Source of the DNA: an uncultured bacterium
GTDB lineage: Bacteria; Omnitrophota; Omnitrophia; Omnitrophales; Aquincolibacteriaceae
NCBI GenBank assembly: GCA_964434115.1
Contig: CAYSSX010000004.1
Location: 81,684 to 145,683 of the forward strand
Length of the DNA: 64,000 bases
Reading direction: 5' to 3'
Part shown: one piece after another, positions 22,085-49,303 of the stretch
How positions within the stretch are numbered: the stretch's first letter is position 1
How the letters are laid out: each line of letters begins with the position of its first letter
Translations under genes and position numbers: made by a program
The notes under the pieces: model-generated
The model's input: the letters and a program-made list of their open reading frames with translations, nothing else
What the model was told of the DNA's origin: nothing
Databases searched by the model: none

Positions 22085-24883
22085 TTAGCCGGTATTCCGG
22101 AGGCCCGCGGCAACACAATTGATGGTTAAAAGAAGATGCGATTTGTCCGGCTCTGTGGCCGTGTCGGATTGAAGTTTTTTCAGCAGTTCCACCTGGAGAC
22201 GGTTCATCTCCCGGATGGCCGGGAAACGCATGGCGCTGACCCTCGCAAAATTCGGATGCTCTTCGTCCAGAGTTTTGGTTTCTGTCACTTTCAAAATCGC
22301 GGAAGCGGAGCGGTCAAACTCGGCCTGAATGGCGCCAAAAATACGCGCGCGTATGGCCGTGTCTTCGCAAAGCCCGGAGTACCAGCCCGCGACCGTCATA
22401 TCCGCGGTCAAAAGACTGGTTTTAACCGACATGATCAGGTTAATAAAAAAACGCCATTCTTTATACATCCGCTGGATCACGGCAAGGCGCTTGGGGTCCC
22501 GGATCGCGTCCGTTAAGGCACTGCCAAGTCCATACCAGCCGGAAATCAAATGCCGGTTCTGGGTCCAGGAAAAAACCCAGGGTATGGCACGCAGGTCCTG
22601 AATACCGGTGGTTTCTTTTCTTTTCACGGGCCGGGACCCGATATTCAAAAGCCCGATGACATCAATCGGAGATGCGGAACGGAAATAGGTCACAAACCCC
22701 GGGTCTTCGACGAGCGCCCGGTAAGACTGGTAAGAGGCCTGGGACAGGCGCTCCATTTCATCCGTAAAAATCTGAGGAATGGTCAGCGGGTGCAGTTCAT
22801 TTTCCAGACTCGCGGCCATCACACTTCCGGCCAGGAGTTTCAAATGATAAAGAGCGGTTTCGGGATTCGCGTATTTCGAAGAAATCACTTCCCCCTGTTC
22901 GGTCAGCTTAATGCGCCCCCGGAGTGTGCCGGGCGGAAGGCTGAGGATGGTGCGCTGCGTGGGGGCGCCGCCCCGGGAAATCGACCCTCCCGTGCCATGA
23001 AAAAATTTGAGAATCATTCCCTTTTCCCCGGCAACACGGCTCATTTCTCCCTGCGCCTTGTAAATCTCCCAGGCCGCGGCGGCGATGCCTCCGTCCTTGT
23101 TGGAATCCGAATACCCCACCATAACCTGCTGCATTAAACGCCGCGGAGTAAGGCTTTCCCTTACGATGGGAAAAGAGAACAAGGCTTCGAGAATAGCCGG
23201 GGAACGCCGGAGGTCGTGAATCGTTTCAAAGAGCGGCACAATCGAAACCGGGCAGATCTTCCCTTCGAAAGTCCCTGCCTCTTTCATGAATAAATAAACC
23301 ATGAGGAGGTCTGAAACATTCCGCGTCATGGAAATGATGTAAGAACCGATCAACTCCGGGTCAAGGGCCTTCCTTGCCCACGGAATCACCCGGAAGGTTT
23401 CAAGAATTTCCTGTGTGCCCGGGGTGTAGGGCTGCCAGGAAGCGATCAGTGCCCGGGGCGAGGCAATTTCCTTTTCAAGCCAGGCACACCGTTCGGTTTC
23501 TGATTTTTCAAGATAAGACCCCGCCCCGGCAAGGCGTGCAATTTCATCCATCGCCCGCTCCAGGGCCTCGCTGTTTTCCCGGAAATCCAGCTTCGCGAGA
23601 TGAAAACCGAAAGTCTTCACACGGAATTCAAACGGCCTGAGCCAGACCTCGGCCGCGCGGCTGCTGGCGTTCTGTTCAAGGCTTTGGCGGATGACCATCA
23701 AATCGTCAAGGAGTTCGCAGGGATGCCGGTAGGCGTGTACCGGCCACTGTTCAGGATCCAGCTTTTTCTCAATGGCTTCCTTGCGTGCTTCGATTTTGGT
23801 GCGGATCACGGAGAGTTTAATCCGGTAAGGTTCGTGCCGGTTCCGCATCTCAAACTCAGGGAAAGAAGGAACCGTCTTGCGGTCTTCAGCCAGGGACTGC
23901 ATCAGCTCTTCACTGCGTTTCATTTTCCAGGAAGAATGCGGAAATTTCCGGATCAGATCGGAGACTTCTTCACGGTAGAGATCGAGAATAAAAACCGAAT
24001 GCCGGAGAAGCGTCTGCTTCGTGACGCTTGCGGTAGCAAAAGGATTGCCGTCGCGGTCGCCTCCGCGCCAGCTTGAAAACTGGATCAGGGCCGGGATATC
24101 GAAGCGCTCCCCCGGAAAAGCCTGCTTTAAAGCACGGTACAACCGGCTCAAAACTACGGGAATCAAGGGGTAGAAAGTATTGCGGAAATAAAAAAGCCCG
24201 TTTTCCACCTCATCCATGACGCGCGGCTTCTCAAGGTAAATGTCCCCGGTCTGCCAAAGGATTTCAATTTGGGCTTTGACCCGTTCTGAAATTTCCTGGA
24301 TCTCACGGCTTGTCAGGTCCGCCTGATTGAGGCGTGAAAGTTCATCGTAAATCCGCTTATGGCCTTCCAGGACCGTCACACGCTTGGCTTCCGTAGGATG
24401 CGCGGTCAACACGGGCTGAATTTCAAATCCGGAAAGGAATGCCTTGATCTGTTCGGATTGAACCCCCTGACGCACCAGCATGTCAATCGCGGAGCGAAAG
24501 GCCCATACCGGGGAAGCGGAAGAACGCGAATTTTCATGAAGTTCAGTTTCTTCGCGCGTGCGCCGGGAGTGCGCGCCGCAAAGCTCTTCCGCGATATTAA
24601 AGAGATGGAACAAAATGGAATAGGCCTGAATCACGCCTTCGCGCTGCGCCATATTGTCAAACTGGCGGCGCCAGGCAGCCTCGGTCTCTTCAGCAGACGC
24701 CAGCGCGGGAAGCATCGCGGCAATCCCCGGAGCACCGGAAGAAGAAAGCACTTCCGCCAGAAATTCCTTAAGGCGGAAGGATTCCTTTTTAAACTGCTCG
24801 GGATCAAAATCCGCGGCGTTATACTGAAAAATAATCGGTTCCGGGTGATTCGATTTCATGACCTTCCTTGAGTCTTTCGGCAA
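22085..24883 (-). CDS. ppc: Phosphoenolpyruvate carboxylase
   Basis: 932 aa; signature VGYSDSNKDGG and FHGTGGSISRGGAPTQ; C-terminal TG. Confidence 0.9.
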   Translation of the reverse strand: MPKDSRKVMKSNHPEPIIFQYNAADFDPEQFKKESFRLKEFLAEVLSSSGAPGIAAMLPALASAEETEAAWRRQFDNMAQREGVIQAYSILFHLFNIAEELCGAHSRRTREETELHENSRSSASPVWAFRSAIDMLVRQGVQSEQIKAFLSGFEIQPVLTAHPTEAKRVTVLEGHKRIYDELSRLNQADLTSREIQEISERVKAQIEILWQTGDIYLEKPRVMDEVENGLFYFRNTFYPLIPVVLSRLYRALKQAFPGERFDIPALIQFSSWRGGDRDGNPFATASVTKQTLLRHSVFILDLYREEVSDLIRKFPHSSWKMKRSEELMQSLAEDRKTVPSFPEFEMRNRHEPYRIKLSVIRTKIEARKEAIEKKLDPEQWPVHAYRHPCELLDDLMVIRQSLEQNASSRAAEVWLRPFEFRVKTFGFHLAKLDFRENSEALERAMDEIARLAGAGSYLEKSETERCAWLEKEIASPRALIASWQPYTPGTQEILETFRVIPWARKALDPELIGSYIISMTRNVSDLLMVYLFMKEAGTFEGKICPVSIVPLFETIHDLRRSPAILEALFSFPIVRESLTPRRLMQQVMVGYSDSNKDGGIAAAAWEIYKAQGEMSRVAGEKGMILKFFHGTGGSISRGGAPTQRTILSLPPGTLRGRIKLTEQGEVISSKYANPETALYHLKLLAGSVMAASLENELHPLTIPQIFTDEMERLSQASYQSYRALVEDPGFVTYFRSASPIDVIGLLNIGSRPVKRKETTGIQDLRAIPWVFSWTQNRHLISGWYGLGSALTDAIRDPKRLAVIQRMYKEWRFFINLIMSVKTSLLTADMTVAGWYSGLCEDTAIRARIFGAIQAEFDRSASAILKVTETKTLDEEHPNFARVSAMRFPAIREMNRLQVELLKKLQSDTATEPDKSHLLLTINCVAAGLRNTG

Positions 24884-25096
24884 TTGAGCAAAGCTCCCTT
24901 CTGCAGAATCTGCGCATTATAGAGCAATCCGGCTTGTTCCCCAAAGGAAGATATGCGGTGCCGAAACCGGGACTTCTCGTTTAGAAGAAGTTTAGCATTT
25001 GCGGGGTTTTTCAGGGAAAGGGGGATGAGCCGGTTATCGCGGGAGCACGGCTCGAAGGGTTCCGGGAAAATCAGCCCGGCCGGCTAGGGTTCTCGT

Positions 25097-26032
25097 TTAA
25101 GCACCGCATAAGCGCCAGCGGTTATGCATCCAGAGCGTCCAGTCTTCGGGACGTTTACGGATCTGTGTTTCCAGGCGATGGGCGTATTGCTGAGTATTCG
25201 CGGTAAGGTCTTCCCGGAAATGTCCGGTCTTGATCAATTTAAACGGTTTTTGAAAAATAAGGACAGAACGGGTTTTTTCTTCACGGTAATAGAATGTCGA
25301 GATCACCGGCGTATTGTATTTAAGGCTCAGCGTGGCCGGAAGGCCTGAGGTGGCGGCCTTTCTTCCCAGAAAGTCCACCCAGACCTCGCCTTTCTTAACG
25401 TGCTCATCAATCAGAACAGCCACCACCTTGTTTTGCTGTAAAAGTTTGACCATTTTTCCAACCGCCCCTTTTTGGTCAATACTTTTCAACCCCGTGGCCC
25501 CGCGGAATCGTTTAATAAAGTCGTACACAAACGGGTTCTTCACCGGTTTTCCCACTGCGTGAATCGGAATCCCCCGGGCCGCAGCAGCAACGGCCATCAG
25601 TTCCCAATTCCCAAAATGTGACACGACAAGGATGACTCCCTTGCCCTCCTTGAGCGCTTCCCAGACATTTTCTTCCCCGCGGATTTCAATATGTTTTGCC
25701 GGGTTTTTCGCGATCACGGGAATGCGTAAAAATTCAAAGATGACCTTGACCATCCCCTGCATGGAAGCCCGCCCTATTTCCTGGACAGCCCGGATCGACT
25801 TTTTAGGAAATGCGGCCTGCACGTTTTCAATGGAAATACGCCGGCGGCGCTTGCGAAGAAAAAGAAGGGCGCCTACACCTTCCGCGATCTTCATGGACAT
25901 GGATTTGCTGCAGCCTTTGAAAATAAAGACCAGACTCCGGAAAAACAAGTACTGAAAATAAAAATAAACTTTACGCATGCTCTTCTTTCTTCTTCCGCAA
26001 TCCTGAAATTTGAACTTCCAAACACACGTCAT
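25097..26032 (-). CDS. Lipid A biosynthesis late acyltransferase (LpxL/HtrB-like lysophospholipid acyltransferase)
   Basis: N-terminal TM, HxxxxD-type acyltransferase region (SHFGNWE). True start is probably the Met at ~25978. Confidence 0.65.
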   Translation of the reverse strand: MTCVWKFKFQDCGRRKKSMRKVYFYFQYLFFRSLVFIFKGCSKSMSMKIAEGVGALLFLRKRRRRISIENVQAAFPKKSIRAVQEIGRASMQGMVKVIFEFLRIPVIAKNPAKHIEIRGEENVWEALKEGKGVILVVSHFGNWELMAVAAAARGIPIHAVGKPVKNPFVYDFIKRFRGATGLKSIDQKGAVGKMVKLLQQNKVVAVLIDEHVKKGEVWVDFLGRKAATSGLPATLSLKYNTPVISTFYYREEKTRSVLIFQKPFKLIKTGHFREDLTANTQQYAHRLETQIRKRPEDWTLWMHNRWRLCGA

Positions 26033-26189
26033 CCCTACACCGCCAGGGTTCTAAAAATTTATTATGACGCCTTCCGGGATGCCTGCCTGTGAGCAAGATC
26101 ACAAAATCTCTTAAAAGTTCCTGCCCCAAGGGGTCAGCCCGGTAAAAAAGACCTAAAAGACCCTTCACTGTACGCTGAATCTTTTGGAC

Positions 26190-26219
26190 TTGGTACTTAA
26201 ATCGGGAAAAGGGTATAAT
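26190..26219 (+). promoter_or_regulatory. Sigma70-like promoter TTGGTA-18nt-TATAAT
   Basis: -35 at 26190-26195, -10 at 26214-26219, about 15 nt upstream of the ATG at 26235; seen directly in sequence. Confidence 0.35.
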
Positions 26220-26234
26220 CCGGCCTCATCACCT

Positions 26235-26684
26235 ATGACAGACAGTGACAAGCCTAAAACCTTCTGGACAGTGCTTCCCGCGCTTTTGGCCGGCTCCGCC
26301 AGCCTGATCACGGCCGCAGTTGCGCTTATGAGTTTCTTATCTTCCAGCCATCCCAAAGAACCTTCTCCCCAGGTAAGCCCCGCGCCTCAAACCGTTCAGT
26401 TAAAAAACCTCAGTGAATGTAGTGAAATTGTAGGCCGATGGGATTGGTTTACGGGCGGAGAGACCCGTCTGGATGAAAACGGCGGGCTTGAGTGGCGGCA
26501 GAACCCTTATTCTCCGGTTCCGCTCGTTGTGGGACGCTGGGCATGCACCGGTTCTAATCCCAGAACGTTTCTCCTGAGCTGGCAGAACGGCCTCACGGAT
26601 TCCGTGACGCTTTCTCCCGATAAAAAGAGCCTTGCCGGAAGCAACCAGGCGAAGGTACTCGTTTCCGGGACCCGGAAATCCTGA
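26235..26684 (+). CDS. Hypothetical membrane-anchored protein
   Basis: Start re-assigned to MTDSDKPK downstream of the promoter; one N-terminal TM helix, Cys/Trp-containing soluble domain. Confidence 0.4.
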   Translation: MTDSDKPKTFWTVLPALLAGSASLITAAVALMSFLSSSHPKEPSPQVSPAPQTVQLKNLSECSEIVGRWDWFTGGETRLDENGGLEWRQNPYSPVPLVVGRWACTGSNPRTFLLSWQNGLTDSVTLSPDKKSLAGSNQAKVLVSGTRKS

Positions 26685-26726
26685 CCCCCTGTTTTTCCCT
26701 CGAAACCTCCCCTGAGAAGACTTCCC

Positions 26727-27521
26727 TCAGGAAATAGTTTTCCTTCCTTTAAGGGCGTCGGGAATAAACCACTTACGGGTCCAGGCCTTTAGAACTCGTT
26801 TGGAGAATATTTTCCGGGCCCTTTGATAGAGCTCGGCATCGAGGGCATTCGCTTTCATAATCACCTGGCGGGTTGACAGGCTCATTTGAAAACCCATGTT
26901 GTTCTCCCATCCTCCATTCAGCGGAACATAATCCAAAACTCTCCAATTAAAAACTTCCGAAAAGTGGCGGACTGTATCATCGAACCTTTCCAGTACGCCG
27001 AACGCGGACATTTGTTCACTTAAAATCCGGCTAGCCTTCTCGAGGTCCGCTTCGGTTACAGTTCCAAAAGCCTTATCCATGGTGTCTGAAAGCATACGGA
27101 CCTGAAAATTATCCAATTCCCGGCTGAAGCGGCTTTGGGCAAAAGCTTCCAAGGATAACCCCGGTTCCTGTGTTAGTTTATAGAGATAGTCGCTGGGCGA
27201 TCTCAAAATATGAAAATAAAAAGACGCAATACGGTCTGCGGGATCTCTCAGAAGGGTCAGGTACCGCCATGACCGGAAAGGCAAATCACGGTGGAGCCCG
27301 TAGGGAAAGTGCCCGGAAAGAATCCGGTATTCTTTTTTTTCGGTTTCGGGCAGGGAGAGAAAGTTTTCTTCGTCAAGCCGTGAATGCATCAAACGGATGC
27401 GGACGCCCGGGTAATTGGATTGAAGAAGCCCATTCAGCGTAGTTCCACCGGTTTTTGGAATATGCAGGAAAATGAAACCACGATCATCTTCCTCAGGCTT
27501 TCTAAAACTCATAGCCCGCAC
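26727..27521 (-). CDS. Sulfotransferase (Sulfotransfer_2-like carbohydrate sulfotransferase)
   Basis: PAPS 5'-phosphosulfate-binding motif FLHIPKTGGTT near the N-terminus; 141 nt downstream of the giant ORF on the same strand. Confidence 0.65.
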   Translation of the reverse strand: MRAMSFRKPEEDDRGFIFLHIPKTGGTTLNGLLQSNYPGVRIRLMHSRLDEENFLSLPETEKKEYRILSGHFPYGLHRDLPFRSWRYLTLLRDPADRIASFYFHILRSPSDYLYKLTQEPGLSLEAFAQSRFSRELDNFQVRMLSDTMDKAFGTVTEADLEKASRILSEQMSAFGVLERFDDTVRHFSEVFNWRVLDYVPLNGGWENNMGFQMSLSTRQVIMKANALDAELYQRARKIFSKRVLKAWTRKWFIPDALKGRKTIS

Positions 27522-27662
27522 TTTCTGGGGGTTGGCTTTCCTGAAAAAAACTTACAGAATGGTTGTCATCAATTTAAACGGGGATGTGTCCCGGGTCAAC
27601 TTTAATAAAAAACCTCGTCCGCTTTCCAGGAAAGGATTTTATTAAATACGATTGAACTGGGT

Positions 27663-30600
27663 TTAGGCAGACGCAGAAATACTTCTAAGCGCTTTAAAAA
27701 TCTGCCCAAGATTCGCGAAAGCGCTTGAGCTAGCCTGAACAAAAAGCCCGCTCTTGAGCTGCTGCAGCCGGCTTTCTTCAGCGCCCTGAAGAAGAAGCAC
27801 TGCGGCTTGAAGCAGCGACACACCGTAACCGCGGTTCTTTTCATCAAATTTCAAAAGCGCTCCGCCCGGCAGACGGTCCGCCTGAATTCTTGTCTCCCGG
27901 GCAGGTTCCGGAATCACGCCTTCCGAATCTCCGTCCGCGGTCCAATCCACCCAAGCCGAAAGCGCGCCCTTCGGAATTAAACTGCCGGTCAAGCGGTTTG
28001 AAGCGGTCACAATCGGCATGCGGGAGTAAATTTGGTTACGCACGGCGGCGTCTCCAGGGTATTCGGTCTTAAGAAACTCCAAAAGTTTTTCCCGCAAAGG
28101 CTCGGCGTCTTCATCACGGTCTACGGTCAGTACCACATAATGAGCCTTGGCCTGATTGGTTCCGATCAGAAAGCGGGCGGTATCAAAAATCTGCTCCAGG
28201 GCTTCCCTTTTGGAGGCATCCCGGATATGCGCGAAAAGCGCAATCACTTGTTTGCTGTCCCGCAGAAGGGCCTGAATATTTTCCACCTGATTCTGGAAAC
28301 CTTCACCGCCTTCATTTCGATAGTACGTTTCAACCGCTCCCCTTAAGGCCAAACGGTAATCATTCAGAACCGCACTGTCCCAGGAAGGATCCGCAATGCC
28401 CCCAAGCATCAAGGCCGTGTCATAAGCGTCACGCCCCGTCGGTGCCGCAATAAACGGAAGCCGGACTGCAGGAATATCAAGTGAACCCGGTGCAAAATCC
28501 CTGAGTTCAGAGCGGGTTAAAAATGCGCGGACAGTCTCCGCAGCTGTCAAAATTTCAGGTGTCAAATCCCCTTCTTTCAATACAAGCGGCGGATTGGGGT
28601 TGAGCGGCCAGGTCTTTAATCGGTCAATTTGCCCGACCGCGTGTTCCAGGTAAAAACGCTCTTCTTTTGAATCTGTCAGCGGCGCTTCCACATCAAACGG
28701 ATACTCCACCGGAGTAAAATAAAACCCGGGCGTCTTAAGCGAAAGCCCCATAGTTTCAGCATTCTGTTTCCACTGATGCTGGAAAATTCTGAGGGACAAA
28801 AGCCCGCCTGTGGGAATCTGGGTAAGAACAAAATTCTGCGATTGAACAGCGCCGTCTTTTACGGCCTGGGCCAGCGAAGTCACATTCATGCCTGTATGCA
28901 TGGATTCATCCACGGAATCAAATCCTTTGATTTTGGAAGCAAGGGCAGGATCAAGGGCCAGAATTTCTCTCCGGAGACGCACACGTTCAGGCTCCGCGGC
29001 GCCGCCTTTACCGACAATCACAATTTCAGGAGAGTTAAGTTCACGCGCCTTCTTCACTACGGCTTCGGCGTACCCTTCGTAAGGATTCCCCAAAACCACA
29101 AGCGCATGATCCGCGGGAATGTCTTTGGACTCGGCGGCAAGATGCCTAAACAGCAATTTCGCCGCGCTCTCCTCAGCAGCAGCGCTTTCACTCCGCAATT
29201 CAGAACGTGCTTTTTGAATCATCACATAAGGGATCACATCGTCTCTGCGCTTCACCTGCGTTTTAACAGTCCCATAAACCGCATTTGCAATCTCGGGCGG
29301 CAATACCGCTTTCGCCTGATCACCAAACTGGGCAGGATCCGGAACAATCCCCTCTTCAAAGGCCATGATCAGGATTCCGCCGGGCTTCAATTGCTGAAAC
29401 AGTTGTGTCTTTAAGGTTTCATCAATACTGCGGGGAACAAGAAACCAGGATTTCAAAATGGCTGTGTCTTTCAGGTCAGAAGGTTTTGTAAGAAGCATGC
29501 CGTCCTGAGAATCGAAATCAGCAAGGCCAAGAACCGCGTGGTTTGCAAGAACATCCGGGAGCGCCAGGTACAAAGCCGCTTCACGGCTGTCTGCACTGAA
29601 ACCGGCGTCAGGAGTCAACACGGTCACAGGCTTTTCTGGCTGCTGATTCTGCTGTTCTCTCACTTCGGCCGGAAGACTGTAGTTCCTGAACTGTGCGGCA
29701 AAAACAGGAGAAGCAGGCTGAATGGCTTCGGCTCTGAGTTCGGAGCGCTGATAATCATAGCGCTTCGATTCCAGAAGCACTCGCAAGGCATGGCGGAAAT
29801 TCCGGCGGGTCTCCGCGCTGCTATACAATTCATCAAACGCCGCAGAAAAAACCGTGCGCCCCGCTTTTTCGATCACTACTTTACCGGCTTCGGCGCGCAC
29901 ACCGGCAGAACGCCAGTCGTGATCACGAAAACCGCCCTGAACTTCCGGCAGACTTCCTCCCCGGGTCAGTCCATCCGCAGCTTTTTCAACACTATCCGCC
30001 CAGACAGGCCATTCGCCGAAAATCTGTATAAGGATTTGCCGCGGCTCCTCTGTCCTGAGCACTTGAATATGGATGGCTTCGAACCATTTTTCAGCATAAC
30101 TCACAGCCAACTTGCGGTCTATTCTTGAGAGACGCGCAATGGCCCGAAGACCGTCGATAAAGACCTGAGCCTGCGCATCTGGAAACCCGTAAGATTTCAG
30201 AAAGGCATTGCGGGTGCCAAATTGAACAACTTCATTTTCGATGTCTTTTTCACTGAAGTTCCTCCGGGTTTTAAGAAGCTTCACTCGGACAGGTTCAAGC
30301 AGCGCATGCAGGGCTCGAAAATCACTAAGCCGGGAGGCCCCTTGACCTTTCTCAATGAGACTCTCCAAAATCTCAAGGCCGGCTTGGGCTTTTAAAACTT
30401 CCTCGTCCTTGTCAAAACCCAGGCTGCTGGTGCGGAGTTCAGAGCGTGTATCAGGTTCTGCCGATTCCTCAATCGCAGCTGGCCGGACGGCCTGTTCCAC
30501 CAAGAAAAAAGTTCCTTGGAGCGTGATCCGGTAGGGCCCTTTCACCTTACCCAGCACTGAAGAAACCGTCGTGCTGACAAAAGCGCTTTCCCCTCCATGG

Positions 30601-33600
30601 CTTTCAAAATAGTACCCGCTTCTAAGCGTTTCCCAGACGCCATCCGATGACCGCTTAATTCTCACGGTCGCCGAGAGGTCCTTTTCATAGGCTTTTCTGA
30701 GCCTCATTCTCAAATCCTCAACTTCAAAAACATAGCCCGAAAGTTCTTTCTCTTCCTTCAAATGGGCAAGAATTCCTTCCTCGACTCTTTTTAGCAGAGT
30801 CAACGACAGGCTCTTATCACCCGTAAAACCAAAAGCACGGGAAGCCTGCAGCATGGTCATTGATTCGCTTTTACGCAGCCGCTTGAGCTCCTTCAAAAAC
30901 TCATCGGTAAGATCAAGTCCCCAAACCACATCGGCATGGCTGATGTTCTTAAGAGTCAACTGGGGGTTTCCGGAGGAGCTCAATTTTGCATTGGCTTGGG
31001 TCAAAACCTCTTCCTTTAAAGAAGCTAACACCTGCCAGCCTTGTTTCTGGATACGGTCAAGGTAGGCCTGCTTTTCCTGTCCGAGCAGCTGGAGAAAATG
31101 TCCGGGGCGGACATAAAGCAGTGAGGGATCCATGCCCATAGCCGAATAAAAGTCCCGCATCGCTTTGGGATCCATACCGAAAGATTCCGCGACAAGTTTC
31201 ATATTGCCGGCATAACGGTCATACCGTTCACGCAGAATTCTCCGCATTGGAATCTCCATTCGGGCTGCATAAAAAAACGTGTGATAACCGCGTGTTTTAA
31301 GCCAGACAATCGATGAATGCTTTCTATAAAACTCAGGAATACTCCAACGCAGTTCGAGAGAACCCAGCTCATCGAGGACGTCTGCCGCTTCGATTCTCCG
31401 GCCGGTTTCAGAGGAGAGCGCTTCGAGAACTCGAATCTTGCGGAGATCCTGAATCTGCCCCAGCGCCGCAGGCTGGTAAGCATCATCTTCTGGTGCCGGA
31501 ATGACTTCGGGGTTTTCAAACCGCTGTTTGGTAATCGCCAGCTCAGCCAGGCTTTCGCGAAGAGCTCTCATTTTTCGCGTGCTTTTTTCACGGGTAAATC
31601 CAAACGATTGCCCTACGGACGTGTCAACACCCCCAAAACGGCTGCCTCTAGCGTCATCCTCCTGCGCAAACTCCGCTGCAAGGTCCAGTGTCCATAAGAG
31701 AAATCCATGATCCATGCGGGGCGCGTCGAATTCCGGAAAGAGTTCCAGAAACTGCGAGCGGAAGACCGGAAGATTCCATGTCAGGCCTTTGGAATCAGGC
31801 AATCTCAGCCAGGCTAGCAGATTTTGACGAACAGCTTCATCATCAGCCTTTACCGCCGTGTCCTTGAGAAATACGGCCAAGTGTTCTTTCCCCTCTATCG
31901 TCTGAGGAATCCGGCTTGTGTCAAAAGCTGCAACACGCGCCGGAAGCTCCCGGAGAAAAGTTCTCTGAAGAACCGGACGCTCTGATAATTTGACGACAGG
32001 CTGTCCGTTGTAAGCAGAAAGCTTTTCATAAACAGCATTCAGCATCCGGAAATCCGTCAGCCCAAGGGCTTCAGAGGTCTTTTCTGCATAACCCAAAAAC
32101 TGATCATAAATGCGTTCGATCTCCTTTTTATAAGGTTCAGCTATGCCAAGCGCATACGCAAAAGATGCCGAACCTCCCGCCGCCGTGAGCGTTGACAGCT
32201 TTCCTAGATAGCGCTTTGATAAAAGAGCGTGAAGATCACGCATACGCCAACGGACAGAATCCCCGGAGGCAAGAGCCATCACAACTTCTTCACTGAGCCC
32301 AAGCTCCTCACGCAGCCAGCCCTGTTTCTTTTCTTCTAGGTTCCTGAGCTCTGAACGGGGATTCCATTTTCCGCCCGCGCGGACAGTCGTAATATTTCTT
32401 GATTCCTCAGCTTCAATCCAGAGCGTCGTGGTTTCATTTTTAGGCGAAGGCGATGTTACCGGAGGCTGCCAGTGATCGACTTCCCAATAGCGGATCAAAG
32501 CGCCAATCTGCTCATCCGTAAATTCACGCCTGCCGCTGGTCCTGGCCTGGTGTTCATCCTGTTGAATACGTCCTGCGATCATGCGCTCAACCGTAGGCCG
32601 CGGGAAAGCAAAGAATCCGTCAAAGCGGTCAAAAACGGGTTTGTACTTCTGAAGCTCTTCAGCTACCACTCTTTTAAGACCGGGCTCAACCTGAGAGACA
32701 TCGATATCCGTATTCGCTCCATTCAGCCACCCCTCAAACACAAAGACTCCAATCTTGCCCTTAATCGTATCCGGGGTTTCATGGTCATCCTTCAATTTGC
32801 TGAAACGCGGCAATTCAACAACGGTGTCTGGTCCGCTCTGTTCCATCTCGCGAATATTGCGTTCAATCCACGCGACATCCTGAGTTCCGGGCAAGGCACG
32901 ATTGACCTTCATACCCGGTGCGTAGCCTTTTTCACGCAGCTTTTCGCGGACGTCTTTCGGTAAGTAATAATCATCCAGCGAGCGGGCCACAGCCTGACCT
33001 TCGCTGTCATCCAGCATTTCGTTCAGCAGCAGCGCCATCACTCGGGACAAAGTGGTCTTCCCGCTTCCGATCGCACCGCCGATGCCAAGAACAAAAAGTT
33101 CGTCCGGACGACGGCTTCTTTTTTCAGCGAGCACCCACTGGGCCAGAGGCAGGTAAACACGCCAGAGGGAATCGATCGCGACATCCTCACGCAGAACCTG
33201 TGTCTTCCAGAACTCCCGGAATGAGGGCCAGACTTTTCTTAAAACTTCGATCCGGTCCGCCACAATTTTCTGTTTATCCGTTCCAAAGTACTGTGCCGTT
33301 ACCGACTGCGCAGGGTCCTGATCAAGAAGGGTTTCAAGCTTTTCAAGTTCTTCGGCTCTCGGAGTTCTGCCTTCAGCGATCTCAATAAGCGCGGACCACA
33401 ACTCAGCGTCTTCAGCACGAAGCTCCGACCGTCCCAAGGCCTCGTTCAAACGGCCTGCAATGCTGGCACCATAACCCGCCTGTGTGAAGCCCAGACGGGC
33501 TTTGATAAAGGCGTTGTTGACTTCACGCTCATTCAACTTCCCGAAAATCCCTGCGAGGTCTTTGGCAATCGCTTTAACAGCGGCAGCTTCATCAAATCTT

Positions 33601-36600
33601 TTTCTGGGTTTCGTGACCTTATCACTTTTCAAGGCTTCACGAATGACCCCTTCGATGATTTCGATCGCCTTCGCTTCAGAAATCCGCACCTCTTCTTTTC
33701 CAGCAACTGTAACCGGCGAGGAAAGTAACTTCGCCATTTGATAAACCAACGGCCTGGAACCTTCCAGACGTCCGCCATTCAACGCCGCGATACCAAGAGG
33801 CGTATAAGCCAAAGTTTCTTTGGGCTCTCCGGTTTTAACGGCGGTCAGTAAATGAAATTTTGCGTCCACCCGGACCTTTCCTTTTTCAATACCCCTTGTC
33901 ACCTGCTGCACCACCATCCCTTCCGAATAAAGGATGTGATTCACAGCGGGATGAAGCCCAGGAATAGCTGAACGGTCGATCAGATATGTCTTAGAAATTT
34001 CTCCTGCGGATTGAATCGAAAATCCCGCGGCTTCGGCGGCGCGCTTGACCCGCTCAAGATGCAGTGCAGGCCTCGACACAGCCACATGTTTGAGCGTTTG
34101 CGTCTCCCGCGATTTTTCAGCAAGCCACTGACTGATAACTTTAAGATTGGCCGTCCCACCTTCCGATTGAAGCGCCTGACTCACGGCCGCTTCAGGAGAA
34201 GAGGGGCGGGCCGTATAAACCGTCATGTACTGCCGGATCATTCCCCAAACAGCCGTCTCTCCCGCTTTGGGCTGAAATTTTCTTTTCATGAGATTCCAAT
34301 CGATAGTCATCATCCCTGTAGGACGCCATTCGCCGGGAGCAATCTCTGTAAAATAAGGAAATGCGACCCATCCATTCCGTTGCGCTTCATAAACCTCGGT
34401 CGTGATGGAAGAACCCATATCAAGTCCCACAATCAGCTTCCCGCCAGGTTTCAAAGTTGCTGCGATGTCACGGATTACAGCCGGGAGCTCCGGAACAGGC
34501 AGGGTATCCAGACCCGCCCAGCTGACTGCCGCGGCCTTGTCCTTAAAAGGAATCGGTTCATGACGCAAATCCACAGGGATAACTTTTTTGACTCGGCCCC
34601 TGCTGTAACGAAGGGCATCCATATTCATGTCGGTCTGAATCCATGATGGATAGCGCGGATTTCCCGGATACCAATCCGCGAAACCATCATGCGCCCAATC
34701 CCACAGGGTTCCGGCACCGGCTCCGTATTCCACCACTCCCTCAATATCTTCCGGGGCAACAAGAGCCTTCAGTTCAGGAACAATGTATTCTTGAACAAAT
34801 TGAGGCCCCAGGGCGTCCATGCCTACCGATTGGCGGGCCCTTTCATACATCTGATGAACCGCGACCCCTTCACCATCTTCCCATTCTTCATCCAGCACAT
34901 TAGAGGAAATAGGCCTTGGACGGGTCATTCTGCTTCCGCTGTCAGGCTTGAAAGAACTGCGTTCTTCGGACGTGACCGGCATGCCCATCACCGTTCGGAG
35001 AACTTTTACAAACGGCTGATCCAGACGCTTGTAAAGAGGCGAAAGTGTTTGGGGAGCATCGCGGTAAACAACATCGTAGGCCGCATACTCGAGGCTGCTT
35101 CGGCCGTCATGATCAAGTTTAAAGTCATTCAGATTGAAATCCGGATTCTCCAGCTGATCGTGAAAAAATCCTTTAAAAAAGGCTTGATAGGGATTGATGT
35201 AGCCCGCCTTGTAAAATTCTTCCAGCCGGTTTCCAAAACGGATTTTCAGATTCAGCATGGCGTATGTCAGCGTCATGTACGCGTAGCCAAAAGCCTGTTC
35301 AGGCGTCAAATCTTCACGAATCTCCCACCCGCCGAGATCATGCCATGTTGTAGGCAGTCTGCCTGAGGGATCCGCTTCGAAGTTGGCAAAATGCGGGGAA
35401 TGCGGGTACAGCCCGGCATCCACAACTTTCCGGAGTTCCCTTCCATAAACTTCTGAAAGTTGATCAATGTTATTTTCTTTTAAAAGTTCTGGAATAACTT
35501 GCGCAGGATCAAAGTATGTAATTTGAAAAGTTGTCAGGGCCCGGCGTTTCACGTCAGCCATGGCATTGGCATATCCACGAAGCAGTCCATTGACCGCTTT
35601 TTCCTGATAGGTCTTGAAGCGCTTCTCGCTTTGACGGTGCGCTGAAATAAAAGCGCCCAGCGGTTCGCCATCTTTTTTAATGTGATCGGGTGTATAAAGA
35701 GCAAACCCCACGGCGACCGGTGTTCTCAATCCTTTTTGGGGAAGCACGGTTCTTGCATTCGCAAATTTCTTGGCCGCCGTCTTTCCTCCATGCCCGCCTT
35801 TCTGGGCAAAGGCCGCGGGCCGGAGATCCGGGCGTCCATCAGCGGCCACATGCACACTGATAGCACTTTCCCGGATGGTCTCTTCATCAAGATCTTCCGT
35901 TCCAGCAGAGGAAGATCCCCAATTCAACCCCCGGAAATCTTCTCCAATGTTATCGCGGTTAAACAAAACGCCCGAAACAATGATGCCGTCAATCTCTTCG
36001 CCTCGAATGGTTCCCTTCCAGGCAATTTTGACAGCCCGCTTTTCATCAGAAAAACCGTCTTCGCGTTCAATATCCCCGGCTTTCCATTGATCGCGGTACT
36101 CGGCAATCACCCGCTCAATTTTTTCACGAACTTCTTCAGGCAAAAGGTTCCAAAGTTCTTCATCCGCCGTCAAATCTGCTGCGCGCTCACCTTCAAGATG
36201 CTTTTTGATCAAGCCCTGATCGGCGGGTTTTGAAACAACTGGCGCGTAAACTTCGGCTTCAGGAGCCGGCTCTTGCTGCACGGTAAATTCTGCGTCCACA
36301 ATCAATCGTGCCGCCAGCTTGAACTGCTGAAAATAATCGGGAATCAAGTAGCCTTGTTCCGTAGCTTGCCCGCTTTTCTCAACACGGAACAAGAAGGCCC
36401 AGCCATACTGAGGATGATTCACGGCTTCGAGTAATGTATAAACAGCCGGGCCAAGACCATAGCGGTCCCCCGCATGAAGTCCTGCAGCCGCAGCCTTGTC
36501 CCTAAACTCTTGCTCTGCAGGCGGCAAAAGAGACAATGCCGCGGGAGAAACACGAACAAAACGCATTCCAAGCTGCCGTTCACTCACCTCAAGTCCTGAA

Positions 36601-39600
36601 GTAAATCTGACCTTGCCCGCAGAGGAATCGATAGATTCGATCGTATAAACCGTATCCAGAAACTGTGTGTCCCGGACCTGATCCCCTGCCTTCCACTCAT
36701 TTTCATCAGAACGAAGCTCGGAGCGGACTTCAACCTTTGTTTTTTCAATTTCTTCTTTTGTGAGAACCGTTTCAAAAGGAAAACCCGCGGCAGCTAAAAC
36801 TGAAAGAAACTTTTCGCCAGGCTGACCTGAAAGATCCGCGTAAGGAGGCGCGGAACCAATGATTTTGCTCAAGGAAGCGCGGTTGATCGGAATCTGCACG
36901 CGGTCAAGTTCAGTTTTCTTGGCAACAACCTCCGCAAGAAAAGACTCGACCGCTGTGCGGGATTTAAAATCAATCATGTCAAAAGCGAGAATACCCTGAA
37001 GCGCGGGGTCATCTGTTTTCCTGCCGTTGAGGCCTGCCCATTCCGCCAGCGTCTCGCGCGCGTTCGTGACCACCTGATCAGAGAAAAACATCGGTTCCTT
37101 CACGCTTGCGTCTGGAACCAATGCCGGTGCCTGGGAAGGGTAGTTGCGGACAAAGCTCGATTTATTCTCCTCCAATTCTTCTTCACCCAACGCGACAAGA
37201 ATCTGGTCAGGACGCCCGGTGATTTCCGCGCGGTCCCACACTCCGCGGTAAAAAAACATCCGGAACCCGTCAGGCAATGCGCCTTCTTCATAAAGCTCCT
37301 TCACAGCAACCTTGACTGTCATCTCGGTGATCGAGTGAGCGCCGTGATCCATAAAGCCTTCCCCGTTTACAATAACCATCCGTGGCTTTTTGGAACGGAT
37401 CACGTCTTTAATCACGTCAATGTCGCTTTGCCGTGCTGTCCCCTTGCGTTCAAGCGCGTACCAGCTGGATTGAAAAGGAAAGAAAATATCGTCGTACCCC
37501 ACGCCGCGGCTCATGAGTTCGGTCTGTTCTTCCACAAAGCGGAGGGCTACTTTCAATTTCTGCATGACCACAATTTCAGAAGATCCCCAATGCGGCTTGG
37601 CCTGGATATAAATTTCAAGTGCATCCCTCAGCGCAGAAATTCTTTCCGGCGATGAAAGCTGCCCCTTCAGAGAGGATTCAAAATTCAACCGGAGGAAGAG
37701 CAGTTTAGCCCGGAGTTTCTGTTCTTCAGCAGGCATCTGGGACCAGGTGTCGTAATCCATAGGGTCATAGGCAAGATCACGTGCAGCGAGAACCTTGATG
37801 AGTTGACGCAGGTATTTTTCTTCACTTTGCTTGAAGGCGAAGACAGAACGGGTTTCTTCCGCAAGCGCCGCAAGCTCATCCACCCTGAAGTTCTTGAGCG
37901 TTCCAAGCGCACTTAAAACATATTCATCCGAAACGGCCGTGTATCCGGGCGCCGTGTAATAGGAATAGAGCCGGTGTCCCTGTTTTGAAAACTCGGAGAC
38001 CAGAAATTGCGCGGCAAGCGAAAGATCGTCGAGATGCGGACCGATGTGAACGATTTCATCGCCGGGGCGAAGCCCAAGACGTGCAGGAACCTGTTCGGAT
38101 TTAAGCGGGTCCTTGTTCAGGGTTTTAACGACCTCATCCCTCAAAACCTCCCAGGGCTGGAGAGTTGTCAGCGCAATAAGGTTCTTGGTACGGATCGCAG
38201 CAATTTCAGTCTGATCTTTTCCCGGCGACTGAAGCCAGTCATCGATAGTAAGCGCCGAGACAGGTTTTCCGGTTTCTTTTGAAAGGCGGACAAACAGCTT
38301 TGCCTGCAGATCCGCATTCCATTCCCGGGCTGGAATTTCAACAAAATCCCACGTGTTTGTAAAATAACGAAGCGTGCTTCCCGAAGCAGACTCCATAATC
38401 AGGACACTGCCCGGCGCGCCGATCTGCAAGGCGGTCATGGGGTACTGAATGTCGGCTGTTCTTTCCACAAGACTGCGGACAGACTCGCGCTTTTCCTTAC
38501 CATTAATAATGGTGATAAAAATCGGGTGGCTGCTCCTGATTTCTTTGGGTCCCAAAGTCGCGCCGCCGATCTTGATCTCGCCCGACGGAGTACGAAAATG
38601 CTGCATCCCGCCGCGGTCCTTGATATTCCCCGCCGCCGCGTGGTAACTGAGAAGCGACATCACAAGACCTTGATCAAAAGGCGTTCCCGCTTCATTAAAA
38701 GCAAAGTGCCCTTTTCCCTCATACGAAGGTCCGGCGCTGAAAAGCGCAATGTCGGGGCCTTTGGCCAGAACAAACTCCGCCATCTTCTTTGTGTAGCGGT
38801 TGACGGCTTCAAGGTAGGCGTACTGCGGATGATCTTGGGCAAGCTGGCCTTTTAAAAACTCATCAAGCTTCAAACCTTCTTGATCAATCGAAGCCTGGAC
38901 TTTTTCAAATTCGGCCTTGTCCATTTTGTTATCCGCGCCGGGTTCGATGAGATCATTCTTCACGTCCCCATAAAACATGCGGCGTTTCTCGCGCGATATT
39001 CCGAGTTTATCAAACATATTGTGAAGTTCATTGGCATAGGAGTAATAGTCATCTCGGCTTTGAGGGAAAATGGTGTCAAGATGCGTTGCAAAGATGCGGC
39101 CCATGTCCGGCTTATCGGAAAGATCCACTCCGTTTGCCGTAAGAAGCTGGCGTGTTTCATCATCCCAGCTGCCCCAGCTGTCCAAAATACTGGCAAGCGT
39201 TGTAAGGCCAAGCCACTGCGTGTTACCGGTTGCAAAGATAATAAAGACATCACGGTCTTTCTGCCCCGCAGCATCATAGGCCTTTCTCTTGCCCTGGATT
39301 CCTTTAATGATCGCCGCAGCCTGCAAAGCTCCCGTGTGCGCGATATCGCGTCCCACGCGAAGCGTTGTATCCGGTGCCTGGCTGAACACCTTTTCATAAA
39401 GGTCGAGGCCCTTCAAGCGGCCGTCCAGACCAATCGCTTCCGCATTTTCTGTCCTCAATTCAGAGCGCGTCGTCTCCGCAGCAGAAATCCTTTCAAGCTT
39501 GAGAAGGTTATATCCTTGGTTGCGGCCTTCGTAGGTTTTGGTTTCGAGAACCTCAATGCTCCACGCCCCATCGACAAGCTCTCGCAAGTCTTCCATGTCG

Positions 39601-42600
39601 CTTTGCGAAAAAATCATCTGGATACGGCCGCCTGGGGCAAGATACCGGGAAGCTTCTTCAAAAAAGCGCTTCAAGACATCCCTCTGATCATCATAAATAG
39701 ATCTCTCCAAAATGCTTGAGGGACGGCCGGCTAGTAGCGGGGGTGAGAAAATAATCAGATCAAACTTTTCTTCCGGAGAAACGGCTTCAAAAAGATCGCT
39801 TTTCCTGGCCTCCAATTTTCCTTTCAGGCCAAGATGCTGGATATTGTGCTCGATATTGGAAACTGCTTCATCACTGACATCCGTGGCCAAAACATGACCC
39901 GCGCCTTTTTTGACCGCGATAATGCCCTGATAACCGGTCCCGCTTCCAATGTCCAGAACCCTGTCGCCTGGGTTAATCTCCAGGACCTGTCCCAAAAGCG
40001 GACTGCTCACATTTTTAATGGCCGGGTTAAAAACATTCCGGTGCACGTAAATGCCTTCCGGAATCCCCTCAACCTCAACGAGAATTTGGTCACGATCGCC
40101 CATAGCACGGCGGGAAGCATCCAAAAACTTGAGTCCAAGAAGATCTTCGCGTGTCAGCGAGGGCGCCGTAGAAGCTTGCTGATTAACACCCGCTGCCCCT
40201 GTTCGGAGTTCCGAGCGTACCCACTGCCGGAGTCTTAAAGGCGGAATTTCTGAAATCATTTTGCCGGCGTGCTTCGCTAAATGATCAAGAACCTGCGCAG
40301 TTCCCGCCATTTTATCGTTCGCAATAAATGTCCCTTCGGGAAGACGTGAGGCATAAGAAGGCAGGCTTCTCAAGAAGACTGGAACAACAGCATGCGAAAA
40401 CCCTGCAGGGCCTTTCAAACTAAAAGTCGGAATATCATTGTCTCCGTCACCGATCACAATCATAAGGAGCGGCTGTTTCGGGTCGAGCTGCCGATAAATC
40501 TGCTCGTTCAAAGTTTTGCTTACGCCTTCAATCTTGGAAACGCGCGCCATATCCACAGCGCCCGGGACAGACACCACGTAAAGGTCTTCTGTCCCTGGAG
40601 GATACTTTTTCTGAACTTCGGTCATGATTCCCGGCGTGAATTCTGCAGGCAATAAATCTCTTAAGGAGGGTGCATCAAAACTGACCTTCGGTCCCACATC
40701 GTAAACAAAAACCCGCCCCCAGCCTTTCAGAAAATCCTGCGGAAGCAGATCAAAAATATACTTGGCTTCATCGGCCTGCTTTTCTCCCCAGGCTTCGGGG
40801 CCAATGGCCTCAAGCGCTGCCATACGTTCATCCCGGATGGCATCAATCTTTGAATCCGGTGTATCTTTTAAGGCCTCTGCCAAAAAACCCTGCCGCTTTT
40901 TGAGTTCTTGATAAAAAGCCTCTGCCAGTGCTTTGGCATATTCAAAACGGCGCGCCTTGGGCCAGGAATCGAGCTCTTCCCGGTAACGGACGGAGGCATC
41001 TGCCGCAAATCCTATGCGGCGGGACCCGCCGTCAGCCACAATGTGAAAATGTTCTCGGCCCGAGCCGGAGATTCCATCAAGAAGCGGAGTGTATGTTCTT
41101 TCTGCCAGGTCTTTAAGCGGGTCTCCGGAATTCACAAGCAGGAAAAACCCGTCCCGGCCTAAGAGTTTGATACTGTCCTCAAGAATAGTGCCGCTGAGCG
41201 GATCCCCATACCCCTGAACCATCGTGCCGGTGTTGTCTGAAACAAAAACAATCTGGTTGAGAGGCTTGTCCTGCTGATCTGCGGGGAAAAGCGATCTCAC
41301 ATCCAGTTCTTTCTCAACCAACTCATAACCGTTTTGAGTATCCCCTGTCCGCAGCTCAGAGCGCCGGGTATAAACAGTAATTCTGGGGAAGCCTTCGTTA
41401 GCTCTGACATCAAAATCGCCATTCGAAGTGAGAAGCTCACGCAGTTTTTCAGGCGCGCTGGCATCTTCCCCGATTGTGACAAGGCGGGCACCGGGACGAA
41501 GCTCACGAAGCGTTTCTGCAAAAGCATTCAGATCACCTGAACCAGCCTCCGCGTAAACGACCACAGAGGCCTCCCTGAACAGATCTTTGCGGTCATTAAA
41601 GTTTCCTCGCATGAGATTGATCTGGCCGGGTTTGATAAGATTTTTCTTAAGGGCCTGCGAATGAATCGCCTGACTTGCCTTGAAATGATCCGGGCTTCCT
41701 TCCACTCCGGCAAAACGAATTTCCGGGTTCAGTTTCAGGGCACGGCTTGCGAGCCGGCCGAGAAGAGCACCGGTACCATGACCTGCATCAAGAACCAGCG
41801 CAGGTCCTTTGGACGGAAGTCCCAAAGCTGCGAAGACAAAGTCAACATAGGGTGACGGCGTGGACGCAAATTTTCCGATAGGATTTCCTTCAGCGTCTCT
41901 TGTCCCTGTAATTTTTCCGTTAATCCCGTACTTCCGGACAATCCCATCCCAGCCGCGGTCTTCTTCCGCAAAAGGGCTGTTCAAGGATCTGAGCTCAGAT
42001 CGTTTCGAAAGACTCTCTTGAACGGCTGAAAAGTAAGGTCCTTTCATGTCCACTTCAAAGCCTTCTTCACGAAGCGCCTGCCTGATGGCCGAACTTTGTC
42101 CCGCAACATCCCACCCCTGAGCAAGGGATGCCGCAGGGTCGTTTGCCAAAACCGTTTGTTCGAGGCCGGCGCTGCGCATCATGATTTTGTGGTAAAGATC
42201 ATTTCCAAGGTCCCCTGAAACATGCGGTGTAATCACGACAAGCCCCATCCCGCGTTCGCGCAGGCGCTCTTTCATGCCCGCACCATGAAACCCGCCGGTC
42301 ACAAGAACCGCTGTCTTTTGTCTCCGCTTCTTAAGGCCTTCCGCCATCCGGTCAAGAAAGGCCTCTTCCCGGCGGCTCATACCTTGGTAAAAAGCTTCAG
42401 CGGTCTCAAGACTTTCTGCCAAAGAGGGTTCGATCGCAGAGGTTTTTGCCCCCTGCCAATTCTCCCAATCACGGGGTGACATCTCAAGACGCAGCAGCTT
42501 CCGGGTCAGCATAAGATTTTGATAGTTGCGGACAATTTCCCGCTGTTCCGGAGTGTTCATTTCTTTTTCCAAAAGCTCTTCAAAAAGCCGCTCCATTTCC

Positions 42601-48424: not shown

Positions 48425-48498
48425 AGAAGTGACATAATATCAGTCAGTTCCGGCAGGCCGTCAAGGGGCTTCTTGCGCTGCCGGAAAGCCGGCCGGGT

Positions 48499-49302: not shown

Positions 49303-49303
49303 C

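Follow-up and report, generated by a model that had tools for sequence, protein, structure and literature searches.

A recurrent R-[S/A]-E-x-R pentapeptide delimits exchangeable cassettes in giant signal peptide-bearing proteins of Omnitrophota and is a candidate processing site

Introduction

The bacterial phylum Omnitrophota encodes giant multi-enzyme proteins, described as 'Archaeovorin'-type proteins in work focused on lengths of >30,000 amino acids (aa) (West-Roberts et al. 2023, bioRxiv 10.1101/2023.11.21.568195) and as 'multi-enzyme metabolic clusters' in work focused on lengths of at least 10,000 aa (bioRxiv 10.64898/2026.06.07.730766). Three published sources, including PMC11573180, ask whether such giant or 'huge' proteins are cut, with no cleavage points or protease motifs known, and because the cleavage points were not known the giants could not be split (bioRxiv 10.1101/2023.11.21.568195). 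Missing cut sites block both structure prediction and functional dissection of these proteins. Here, we describe a 5,328-aa protein encoded by one open reading frame (ORF) on the reverse strand of contig CAYSSX010000004.1, from an uncultured member of the Omnitrophota; the stretch of DNA analysed, hereafter the window, is 64,000 nucleotides (nt) long. Its modules are separated by copies of a single pentapeptide, R-[S/A]-E-x-R, which we call the delimiter.

Like the described giants, the window protein belongs to the phylum Omnitrophota and strings methyltransferase, HAD-like, kinase and sugar-metabolism domains along one very long ORF; it shares with them the signal peptide that they frequently carry, and it is likewise poorly conserved overall, with few annotated domains. 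Cleavage has been hypothesised for those proteins too. The window protein is far shorter than their 10,000-30,000+ aa but passes the >5,000-aa 'huge protein' threshold (PMC11573180), and whereas they have numerous transmembrane helices it has none, placing it in the minority 'signal peptide only' class (bioRxiv 10.64898/2026.06.07.730766). Neither text speaks of a conserved head, a conserved tail ending in [S/A]-A or R-[S/A]-E-x-R at each junction; in bioRxiv 10.64898/2026.06.07.730766 'motif', 'linker' and 'cleav' have 0 occurrences, and no prior description of the delimiter or of a head-cassette-tail plan was found in the searchable literature, whose coverage is incomplete. A sequence-only reading of this DNA had judged the fusion of so many domains into one polypeptide very unusual for bacteria, which does not apply within a phylum where giant multi-enzyme ORFs are a described trait.

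Results and discussion

A pentapeptide marks every module junction

Eleven copies of RSELR occur in the window ORF, against ~0.1 expected by chance (scaled from family shuffles), dividing the protein into 12 modules, S1 to S12 (Table 1). When the protein was split at RSELR and each segment searched for Pfam and NCBIfam profiles and for similarity to sequences in the PDB, every profile match was confined to a single RSELR-bounded segment. Our first homologue search, of 5.8 billion proteins, returned only two relatives, P0001 and P0002, which have the same first, S5 and last modules and other internal module numbers. Across the three proteins RSELR stands at 18 of 18 junctions, whereas identity between the modules is 37-80% and the flanks of the motif are unrelated. 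Since the codons of the 11 window copies differ at every wobble position, it is the peptide RSELR that is conserved; a DNA repeat is ruled out by these differing codons and by the 3-periodic nucleotide information described below.

A profile of S1 run against 1.84 billion cluster representatives matched 7,058 proteins, 4,869 of them at E <= 1e-10, whereas a word-index search started from the head alignment gave only four fragments. The best 150 of these 7,058 matches form the sample for our family motif statistics, and in most of them S1 is the N-terminus of a protein of 1,000-7,186 aa. The pattern R-[SA]-E-[LVIMAT]-R occurs 599 times in this sample and 8.5 times in shuffles, a 70-fold enrichment, and lineages differ in the fourth residue that they favour, giving RSELR, RSEVR, RAEVR, RSEAR or RSEMR. 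Conservation is confined to an island of five residues (of which positions 1, 3 and 5 are invariant by construction of the search pattern), and the flanks are nearly information-free, with small residues slightly favoured at -1 and +5. Delimiters begin near residue 550-600, where S1 ends, and follow one another at a median spacing of ~260 residues. Delimiter count rises with protein length, and minimal members of ~1,000 aa, consisting of head and tail, are mostly delimiter-free. Ordinary genes of the same genomes contain 0 copies against ~2 expected, too few to test avoidance, and all 30 'non-family' matches to the motif fall in other giant ORFs. For some lineages, the delimiter sits inside a longer repeated linker, such as '...NPDGLEAPRDHDDPRSELR' in P0009 or the 'SELPSASVTQRT.EDERDVH' repeats that precede delimiters in P0012.

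Exported heads, variable cassettes and a common tail

Family members follow a common build plan of signal peptide, ~520-aa head, a variable set of delimiter-bounded cassettes, and a tail ending in [S/A]-A. Sec signal peptides with a basic n-region, a short hydrophobic core and an A-x-A-type site, often A-R-A, are found in 97 of 111 complete members. The window protein has no transmembrane-grade segment by 19-residue Kyte-Doolittle windows (threshold 1.6; maximum 1.41 outside the N-terminal 40 residues). The C-terminus is [S/A/Q]-A in 111 of the 150 proteins, following an amphipathic stretch, with the consensus hydrophobic-[A/S]-x-[S/A]-A-COOH, and two groups of C-terminal modules, one of which includes S12, are related to each other (hhalign probability 96.9%). 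The S12 tail is common to P0001, P0002, P0004, P0005 and P0012.

A genome scan yielded 48 loci, with more than one copy in several genomes, and every locus with an organism name comes from Candidatus Omnitrophota; the P0002 cluster includes a protein with the annotation Candidatus Omnitrophica. The family is apparently specific to this phylum. Genomes carry several such giant genes, some in tandem. Further giant ORFs with the same delimiter and an [S/A]-A ending lie upstream of head-bearing genes at L001:1-5971 (+), with at least four delimiters, ~4 kb upstream and separated by several small genes, and at L037:1-9678 (+), with at least nine delimiters, ~110 nt upstream. The P0001 contig has a second giant gene just upstream, with the same delimiter and other modules. 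The L001 ORF has modules unlike those of the window protein, among them an HD-domain/ACT-type (GlnD-like) region recognised by eye.

Between head and tail the window protein has ten cassettes, mostly enzyme-like and mutually unrelated (methyltransferase-like, HAD-like, NagB/LmbE-like and glycerate-kinase-like, with five unassigned), and cassettes are gained, lost and exchanged at delimiters within the family. Fifty-two percent of BLAST alignment ends fall within 10 aa of a delimiter, compared with 5% for randomly placed segments, and cargo counts differ (ten in the window protein, four in P0001, one in P0002, five in P0004). The closest relative, P0004, shares full-length S2, S3, S5, S11 and S12 at 65-90% identity, has a kinase-like and GH77 block in place of window S6-S10, and is missing S4. 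The P0001 locus and the window share as neighbours the cytochrome oxidase genes, a major facilitator superfamily (MFS) transporter, EF-P, DUF6933 and a Methyltransf_11 gene, which makes P0001 a positional orthologue of the window gene, yet one with different cargo. Cargo elsewhere in the family includes GH77 4-alpha-glucanotransferase, aldose 1-epimerase, peptidase M23, Ser/Thr protein kinase and a starch-synthase domain.

The head module

Residues H76, E104, E155, Y160, R307, R427 and G452-G453-x-H455 (window numbering) are invariant in an alignment of 16 diverse heads, whose conserved blocks run in the order strand-His, strand-Glu-Gly, helix with Arg-Glu/Asp, strand-Gly-Gly-x-His. We take a His...Glu...Arg...GxxH order to be a hallmark of the Ere/ChaN/TraB/Tiki superfamily, many members of which are extracytoplasmic. 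An AlphaFold (AF2) model built from the 16 sequences (predicted local distance difference test [pLDDT] 84; predicted template modelling score [pTM] 0.77) has an alpha/beta core; an earlier model from three sequences, with a pLDDT of 59, was too poor for a fold search. The top two Foldseek matches to the newer model are the erythromycin esterase EreC (E = 0.03-0.04, probability 0.63 and 0.47, TM-score ~0.2), and two other Ere-like structures appear in the top 21, none of these matches being significant. Per-sequence Pfam searches gave weak matches to PF04187 ('Tiki superfamily, ChaN') and to DUF5682, each in 2 of 16 members and far below threshold. Profile-profile comparison with Escherichia coli YbaP of the TraB family by hhalign, using YbaP alone and a 10-sequence alignment, was not significant, with only the predicted R-x-x-aromatic ... 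GxxH region aligning. The head thus shares the block order of the superfamily, adds to it a helical insertion of ~250 aa, and has no statistically significant match to it. We tentatively suggest, with confidence falling just short of even, that it may be an Ere/ChaN/TraB/Tiki-like hydrolase.

Putative processing at the delimiter

The explanation we favour is that the window protein is an exported polyprotein that carries cassettes and is processed at its delimiters, a judgment that for us is evenly poised. The head-cassettes-tail protein would be exported via Sec and its signal peptide cleaved, and proteolysis at the R-[S/A]-E-x-R delimiters would, after export, release the cassettes as separate proteins. 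The universally present head would be the first candidate for the processing enzyme, with a separate envelope protease as the alternative. We suggest a processing site because the delimiter is short, invariant and context-free, because it flanks every inserted cargo and is often absent where head joins tail directly, because the tethering of ten unrelated enzymes has no evident benefit, and because others working on these giants independently proposed cleavage, though without sites. More speculatively, the released modules may act inside a host or prey cell: several cassettes need S-adenosylmethionine (SAM) or ATP, neither of which is present outside the cytoplasm, and action inside another cell would match the proposed host-dependent lifestyle of the phylum. 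The most far-reaching version of the polyprotein explanation, which we consider rather unlikely, makes R-[S/A]-E-x-R the cleavage code of a phylum-wide system in which the carrier is Sec-exported, the Ere/Tiki-like head serves as maturation protease, the tail serves as a targeting element, and arbitrary cassettes are released as cofactor-dependent effectors in or on host or prey cells.

Several observations weigh against processing. Cleavage is what we infer from an architecture that is itself observed. Many relatives have transmembrane cassettes, and a crude hydropathy count gave no clear even-number rule between delimiters, so delimiters could face both sides of the membrane. In six long members (P0023, P0068, P0139, P0141, P0143, P0150) head and tail are present but there is no delimiter. 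The idea of the head as protease is weak: to our knowledge, members of its putative superfamily are not Arg-directed endopeptidases, and the existence of delimiter-free head and tail members implies that the head has some function besides cutting delimiters, so that a separate protease is equally possible. A conserved protease gene was not found beside family genes, where only housekeeping synteny (pheS/pheT, rarA-like, uvrD-like) and a STAS/PilZ-like gene recur. Finally, codon bias at the delimiter, described below, hints at an additional nucleic-acid-level or translational role.

Some of these points suit a different explanation, that each giant stays one uncleaved polypeptide resembling beads on a string, with R-[S/A]-E-x-R as a linear motif that docks a chaperone, a foldase, a secretion component or the head and tail modules and so marks boundaries for folding, export or assembly. 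A flank-independent island is typical of recognition motifs, the conserved neighbours offer no protease partner, the head is functional in delimiter-free minimal members, and peptidyl-prolyl isomerase genes lie near some family genes, as does an FKBP gene in the window. To this may be added, as a weak point, the delimiters possibly lying on both sides of the membrane in transmembrane relatives. Conserved rotamase and type II secretion genes also occur near giant genes (bioRxiv 10.1101/2023.11.21.568195). Set against these observations, a scaffold gains no obvious benefit from tethering ten unrelated and partly cofactor-dependent enzymes outside the cytoplasm, and cassettes that turn over cleanly, each cargo having a delimiter on both sides, with often none in head and tail proteins, fit excision better. 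Moreover, strict invariance of two arginines and one glutamate is typical of endopeptidase sites. On balance, we regard the uncleaved scaffold as doubtful.

Codon use at the delimiter

Codon choice was examined at 203 delimiters, from the window and 38 loci (within L003-L050). The first Arg is encoded by CGC or CGT at 81% of sites and by AGR at 5.9%, against a background of 23.5% (p = 5e-11); Ser is encoded by TCN at 93% (background 65%, p = 2e-17); the fourth codon ends in G as a rule; and the last Arg is AGR at 48%, against the same 23.5% background (p = 2e-13). This bias is seen in 31-32 of the 38 loci and yields a Shine-Dalgarno (SD)-like consensus, CGC TCC GAG GYG AGG, the most frequent delimiter 15-mers being CGCTCCGAGGCGAGG and CGCTCCGAGGTGAGG (seven sites each). 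Anti-SD pairing at or below -10 kcal/mol is found at 16% of sites, compared with 6.6 +/- 1.8% when the motif codons are synonymously redrawn, and the majority of sites are weak SD mimics. An out-of-frame TGA arising from codon choice is only weakly associated with the delimiter (p = 0.013). Pausing of translation at module boundaries, frozen Ser codon families or recombination between delimiters may underlie the codon preference.

These patterns raise the possibility that the delimiter is primarily a nucleic-acid signal and the peptide secondary, acting either as a microhomology or recombination site for cassette shuffling between paralogous giant genes, or as a translational pause, SD-like or driven by codon choice, that lets modules fold. 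The codon bias exceeds the amino-acid constraint, SD-like pairing is above its synonymous-codon control, alignment ends coincide with delimiters, and genomes hold several paralogues, some of them in tandem. Nucleotide information at the delimiter is nevertheless 3-periodic, with wobble positions least constrained, which argues that selection acts primarily on the peptide. All synonymous codons are used, with GAA and GAG near 1:1, strong SD mimics are few, and the three invariant residues span codons outside the SD-like stretch. A primarily nucleic-acid role is therefore quite improbable in our view. Internal translation initiation at SD-like delimiters is ruled out, as there is no conserved start codon downstream.

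Modules of the window protein

Table 1. Features of the giant ORF. Positions are those of the window; amino acids are numbered from the start of the protein.
Feature	Amino acids	Position	Strand	Description
Whole giant ORF		27663..43649	-	5,328 aa + stop codon; one uninterrupted frame
Sec-type signal peptide	1-26	43572..43649	-	Basic n-region KK, short hydrophobic core, V-W-A site; read directly from sequence
S1, head module	27-549	42003..43571	-	Family-defining domain; possible Ere/Tiki/ChaN-like hydrolase
Delimiter 1	550-554	41988..42002	-	RSELR
S2	555-762	41364..41987	-	Weak class-I methyltransferase-like; motif I VLDAGHGTG
Delimiter 2	763-767	41349..41363	-	RSELR
S3	768-1144	40218..41348	-	HAD-like by motifs only: DNTGT (aa 805), GDGDND (aa 1067)
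Delimiter 3	1145-1149	40203..40217	-	RSELR
S4	1150-1394	39468..40202	-	HemK/MTS-type SAM methyltransferase; motif I VLDIGSGTG; motif IV variant SPPL
Delimiter 4	1395-1399	39453..39467	-	RSELR
S5	1400-2308	36726..39452	-	NagB-like + LmbE/PIG-L-like unit; C-terminal region without assignment
Delimiter 5	2309-2313	36711..36725	-	RSELR
S6	2314-3406	33432..36710	-	Large, mostly without assignment; weak methyltransferase-like core VVEYGAGAG
Delimiter 6	3407-3411	33417..33431	-	RSELR
S7	3412-3764	32358..33416	-	P-loop kinase, D-glycerate-3-kinase-like; Walker A GAIGSGKT (aa 3525)
Delimiter 7	3765-3769	32343..32357	-	RSELR
S8	3770-4401	30447..32342	-	No Pfam, NCBIfam or PDB match
Delimiter 8	4402-4406	30432..30446	-	RSELR
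S9	4407-4634	29748..30431	-	No profile or structure match
Delimiter 9	4635-4639	29733..29747	-	RSELR
S10	4640-4814	29208..29732	-	No profile or structure match
Delimiter 10	4815-4819	29193..29207	-	RSELR
S11	4820-5045	28515..29192	-	No profile match; 82% identical cassette in P0004
Delimiter 11	5046-5050	28500..28514	-	RSELR
S12, tail module	5051-5328	27666..28499	-	C-terminus ...LRSISASA-COOH

The peptide motifs quoted in the sequence-only reading are all present and their coordinates hold, but the domain assignments built on them fared unevenly. At least six class-I methyltransferases had been proposed; motif I is found in three modules only (S2, S4 and S6), and S4 alone scores above a family cut-off. 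With matches to Pfam MTS (8e-18, 65 bits against a cut-off of 23) and to NCBIfam PRK14968/HemK-related (HemK/MTQ2-type; 6e-27), S4 is by its sequence solidly identified as a genuine class-I methyltransferase. S2 reaches E ~0.01 with Pfam Methyltransf_25/31, below cut-off, and has a 65% identical module in P0004. S6 reaches 0.009 with Methyltransf_25, also below cut-off, with no PDB match; a 58% identical cassette is also found in P0009, a distant family member with a head only ~38% identical.

The HAD-IIB phosphatase assigned to S3 keeps its motifs DNTGT and GDGDND but has as profile support only TIGR01484 (E = 0.029, 14 bits against a cut-off of 41.8), with no Pfam or PDB match. Motif I of S3 (41223-41237, aa 805-809) reads D-N-T-G-T, Thr replacing the second Asp; such a D-x-T-G-T variant (DKTGT) is typical of P-type ATPases and not of HAD phosphatases. 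Homologous cassettes occur in P0001 (63%) and P0004 (81%).

S5 was read as a fusion of NagB-like and LmbE-like domains; this pair is real and has a counterpart in a known stand-alone fusion family, with family scores below their cut-offs. S5 matches NF002557/PRK02122 at 1e-24 (86.5 bits against a cut-off of 384; profile positions 160-432 of 653) and Bacillus subtilis NagB 2bkv at 1.6e-4, in an alignment that spans the NagB motif; the match to Pfam PIG-L, at 1.5e-4, is below cut-off. It contains GHFAFNE (aa 1647), presumably the NagB active-site His/Glu motif, and PHLDD (aa 1871) and DHGAH (aa 2101), which we take to be the LmbE/PIG-L metal-ligand motifs. Given this pair of domains with their motifs, amino-sugar-type chemistry is plausible for S5 alone. 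S5 is also the only cargo cassette common to all of P0001, P0002 and P0004, at 67-90% identity.

S7 had been assigned to the uridine-kinase/PRK type. Its Walker A motif and superfamily membership stand, and by sequence comparison it is a P-loop kinase of this superfamily, nearer to glycerate-3-kinase than to uridine kinase: the PDB matches are to D-glycerate-3-kinases (1odf, 1.1e-8; 7xpc, 1.3e-8) and 6ckg (3e-7), with uridine(-cytidine) kinases at ~0.3, and NCBIfam places S7 in a nucleoside/nucleotide-kinase family at 3e-5. The DUF218-like domain proposed in S11 found no Pfam or NCBIfam match at E <= 0.1 and no relevant PDB match. Toprim and DegV-like assignments for S12 were set aside, their matches being sub-threshold. 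S1, most of S6, S8, S9, S10 and S12, about half of the protein, had no match in Pfam, NCBIfam or PDB sequences.

It had been proposed that the whole polypeptide is one amino-sugar or nucleotide-sugar pathway, that is, a multifunctional megasynthase whose NagB-like, LmbE-like, kinase, phosphatase and methyltransferase units act in sequence on one substrate. The S5 unit with its catalytic-type motifs speaks for this, as do an adjoining envelope-glycan/lipopolysaccharide (LPS)-type gene cluster (GT2, GT9, PMT_2, acyltransferases) and, as a loose theme, the recurrence of carbohydrate enzymes in the family (GH77, starch synthase, aldose epimerase). Cassette content, however, differs between orthologous loci and cassettes swap between close relatives, with S5 alone constant in the clade, which rules out a single dedicated pathway; a conserved Sec signal peptide with no transmembrane anchor fits a cytoplasmic biosynthetic megasynthase poorly. 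The kinase is glycerate-kinase-like and not a sugar or nucleotide kinase, the HAD, DUF218 and several of the claimed methyltransferase assignments are weak or unsupported, and about half of the protein is without assignable function. We therefore consider this explanation very unlikely; the domains listed are exchangeable cassettes and do not make up one pathway.

The gene and its neighbourhood

The single ORF of the sequence-only reading is intact over its 5,328 aa, with an AGGAG ribosome-binding site 6 nt before its ATG and a GC content and base composition equal to those of its surroundings, and a public protein collection holds an identical sequence (P0003). That the ORF is chimeric, mis-assembled or decaying into a pseudogene, an idea with unusual size as its sole point, is excluded by a frame intact across 16 kb with its ribosome-binding site, by uniform composition, by independent assemblies from many samples and species that show the same architecture, and by shared modules that keep 65-90% amino-acid identity.

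Envelope-glycan/LPS-type genes surround the giant gene (25097-27521 and 43942-53589) and include a lipid A acyltransferase, a sulfotransferase-like gene, two GT2, a GT9 heptosyltransferase-like gene and two PMT_2 (ArnT-like) genes, together with an acyltransferase-3 and three small SAM methyltransferases. An FKBP (peptidyl-prolyl isomerase) gene is also present in the window. An aerobic respiration cluster at 43-8158 (+) encodes NrfD-like and ActD subunits of alternative complex III, c-type cytochromes, SCO1/SenC and cytochrome c oxidase subunits II, I and III, and the same oxidase genes lie close by on the P0001 contig. Two overlapping ORFs of ~600 aa with TTG starts, at 16853-20328 (-), have no Pfam match and adjoin a hybrid histidine kinase/response regulator (15601-16755) and a potassium-channel-like gene (14801-15604). 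Neither tRNA nor Rfam matches were found in the window.

Across the family, a small gene with STAS-type and PilZ-type domains, recognised by eye, lies ~160 nt upstream of the family gene in ~16 of 48 loci (e.g. L018:8702-9616 (+)), downstream of the conserved pheS/pheT, rarA-like, uvrD-like block; the window copy of the giant gene is not in that context. Adjacent pilZ genes are also reported in published work on giant genes.

Comparison with known systems

The delimiter provides explicit candidate cut sites and a rational way of splitting thousands of family members into units. If cleavage at this site is real, the family would be a large bacterial polyprotein system, not recognised before, into which enzyme cassettes are plugged, and would bear on the question of how one gene lets ultra-small, host-dependent bacteria deliver many activities; and if the cleavage code holds, the far larger Omnitrophota giants could be dissected in silico into mature products. 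Should the proteins stay uncleaved, the delimiter would still be a new phylum-wide linear motif.

At the level of a single cassette, the nearest known protein is the stand-alone 'glucosamine-6-phosphate deaminase-like protein' PRK02122/NF002557. The order of the two domains is the same in S5, which also shows the NagB GH..FNE motif and, for LmbE, the H-x-D-D and H-x-x-H motifs, but S5 is a cassette inside a giant protein, has ~250 extra residues, and scores 86 bits against the cut-off of 384.

For the whole architecture, one comparison is with the MARTX toxins of Vibrio and relatives, huge secreted polypeptides with variable, strain-specific effector enzymes that need host-cell cofactors and are freed by a built-in protease at short inter-domain sites. 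The likeness lies in a variable array of unrelated enzymes on one secreted polypeptide, which is read here from sequence alone, with processing and delivery put forward as a proposal. The window protein differs in that no RTX repeats or cysteine protease domain were matched by Pfam or NCBIfam in any segment, in having an N-terminal Sec signal where MARTX toxins use type I secretion, and in its Arg/Glu pentapeptide as opposed to Leu-containing linkers.

A second comparison is with the polyproteins of viruses and eukaryotes, such as those of picornaviruses and potyviruses, the nematode polyprotein allergens and pro-hormones, in which, as here, a short invariant peptide stands at each junction with free flanks. 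The gene described here is by contrast a bacterial chromosomal gene, its unrelated enzymes are shuffled as cassettes, and its cleavage is putative. We do not claim membership of either group for the window protein. Its modular grammar of exported head, delimited exchangeable cassettes and tail can be read directly from the sequence.

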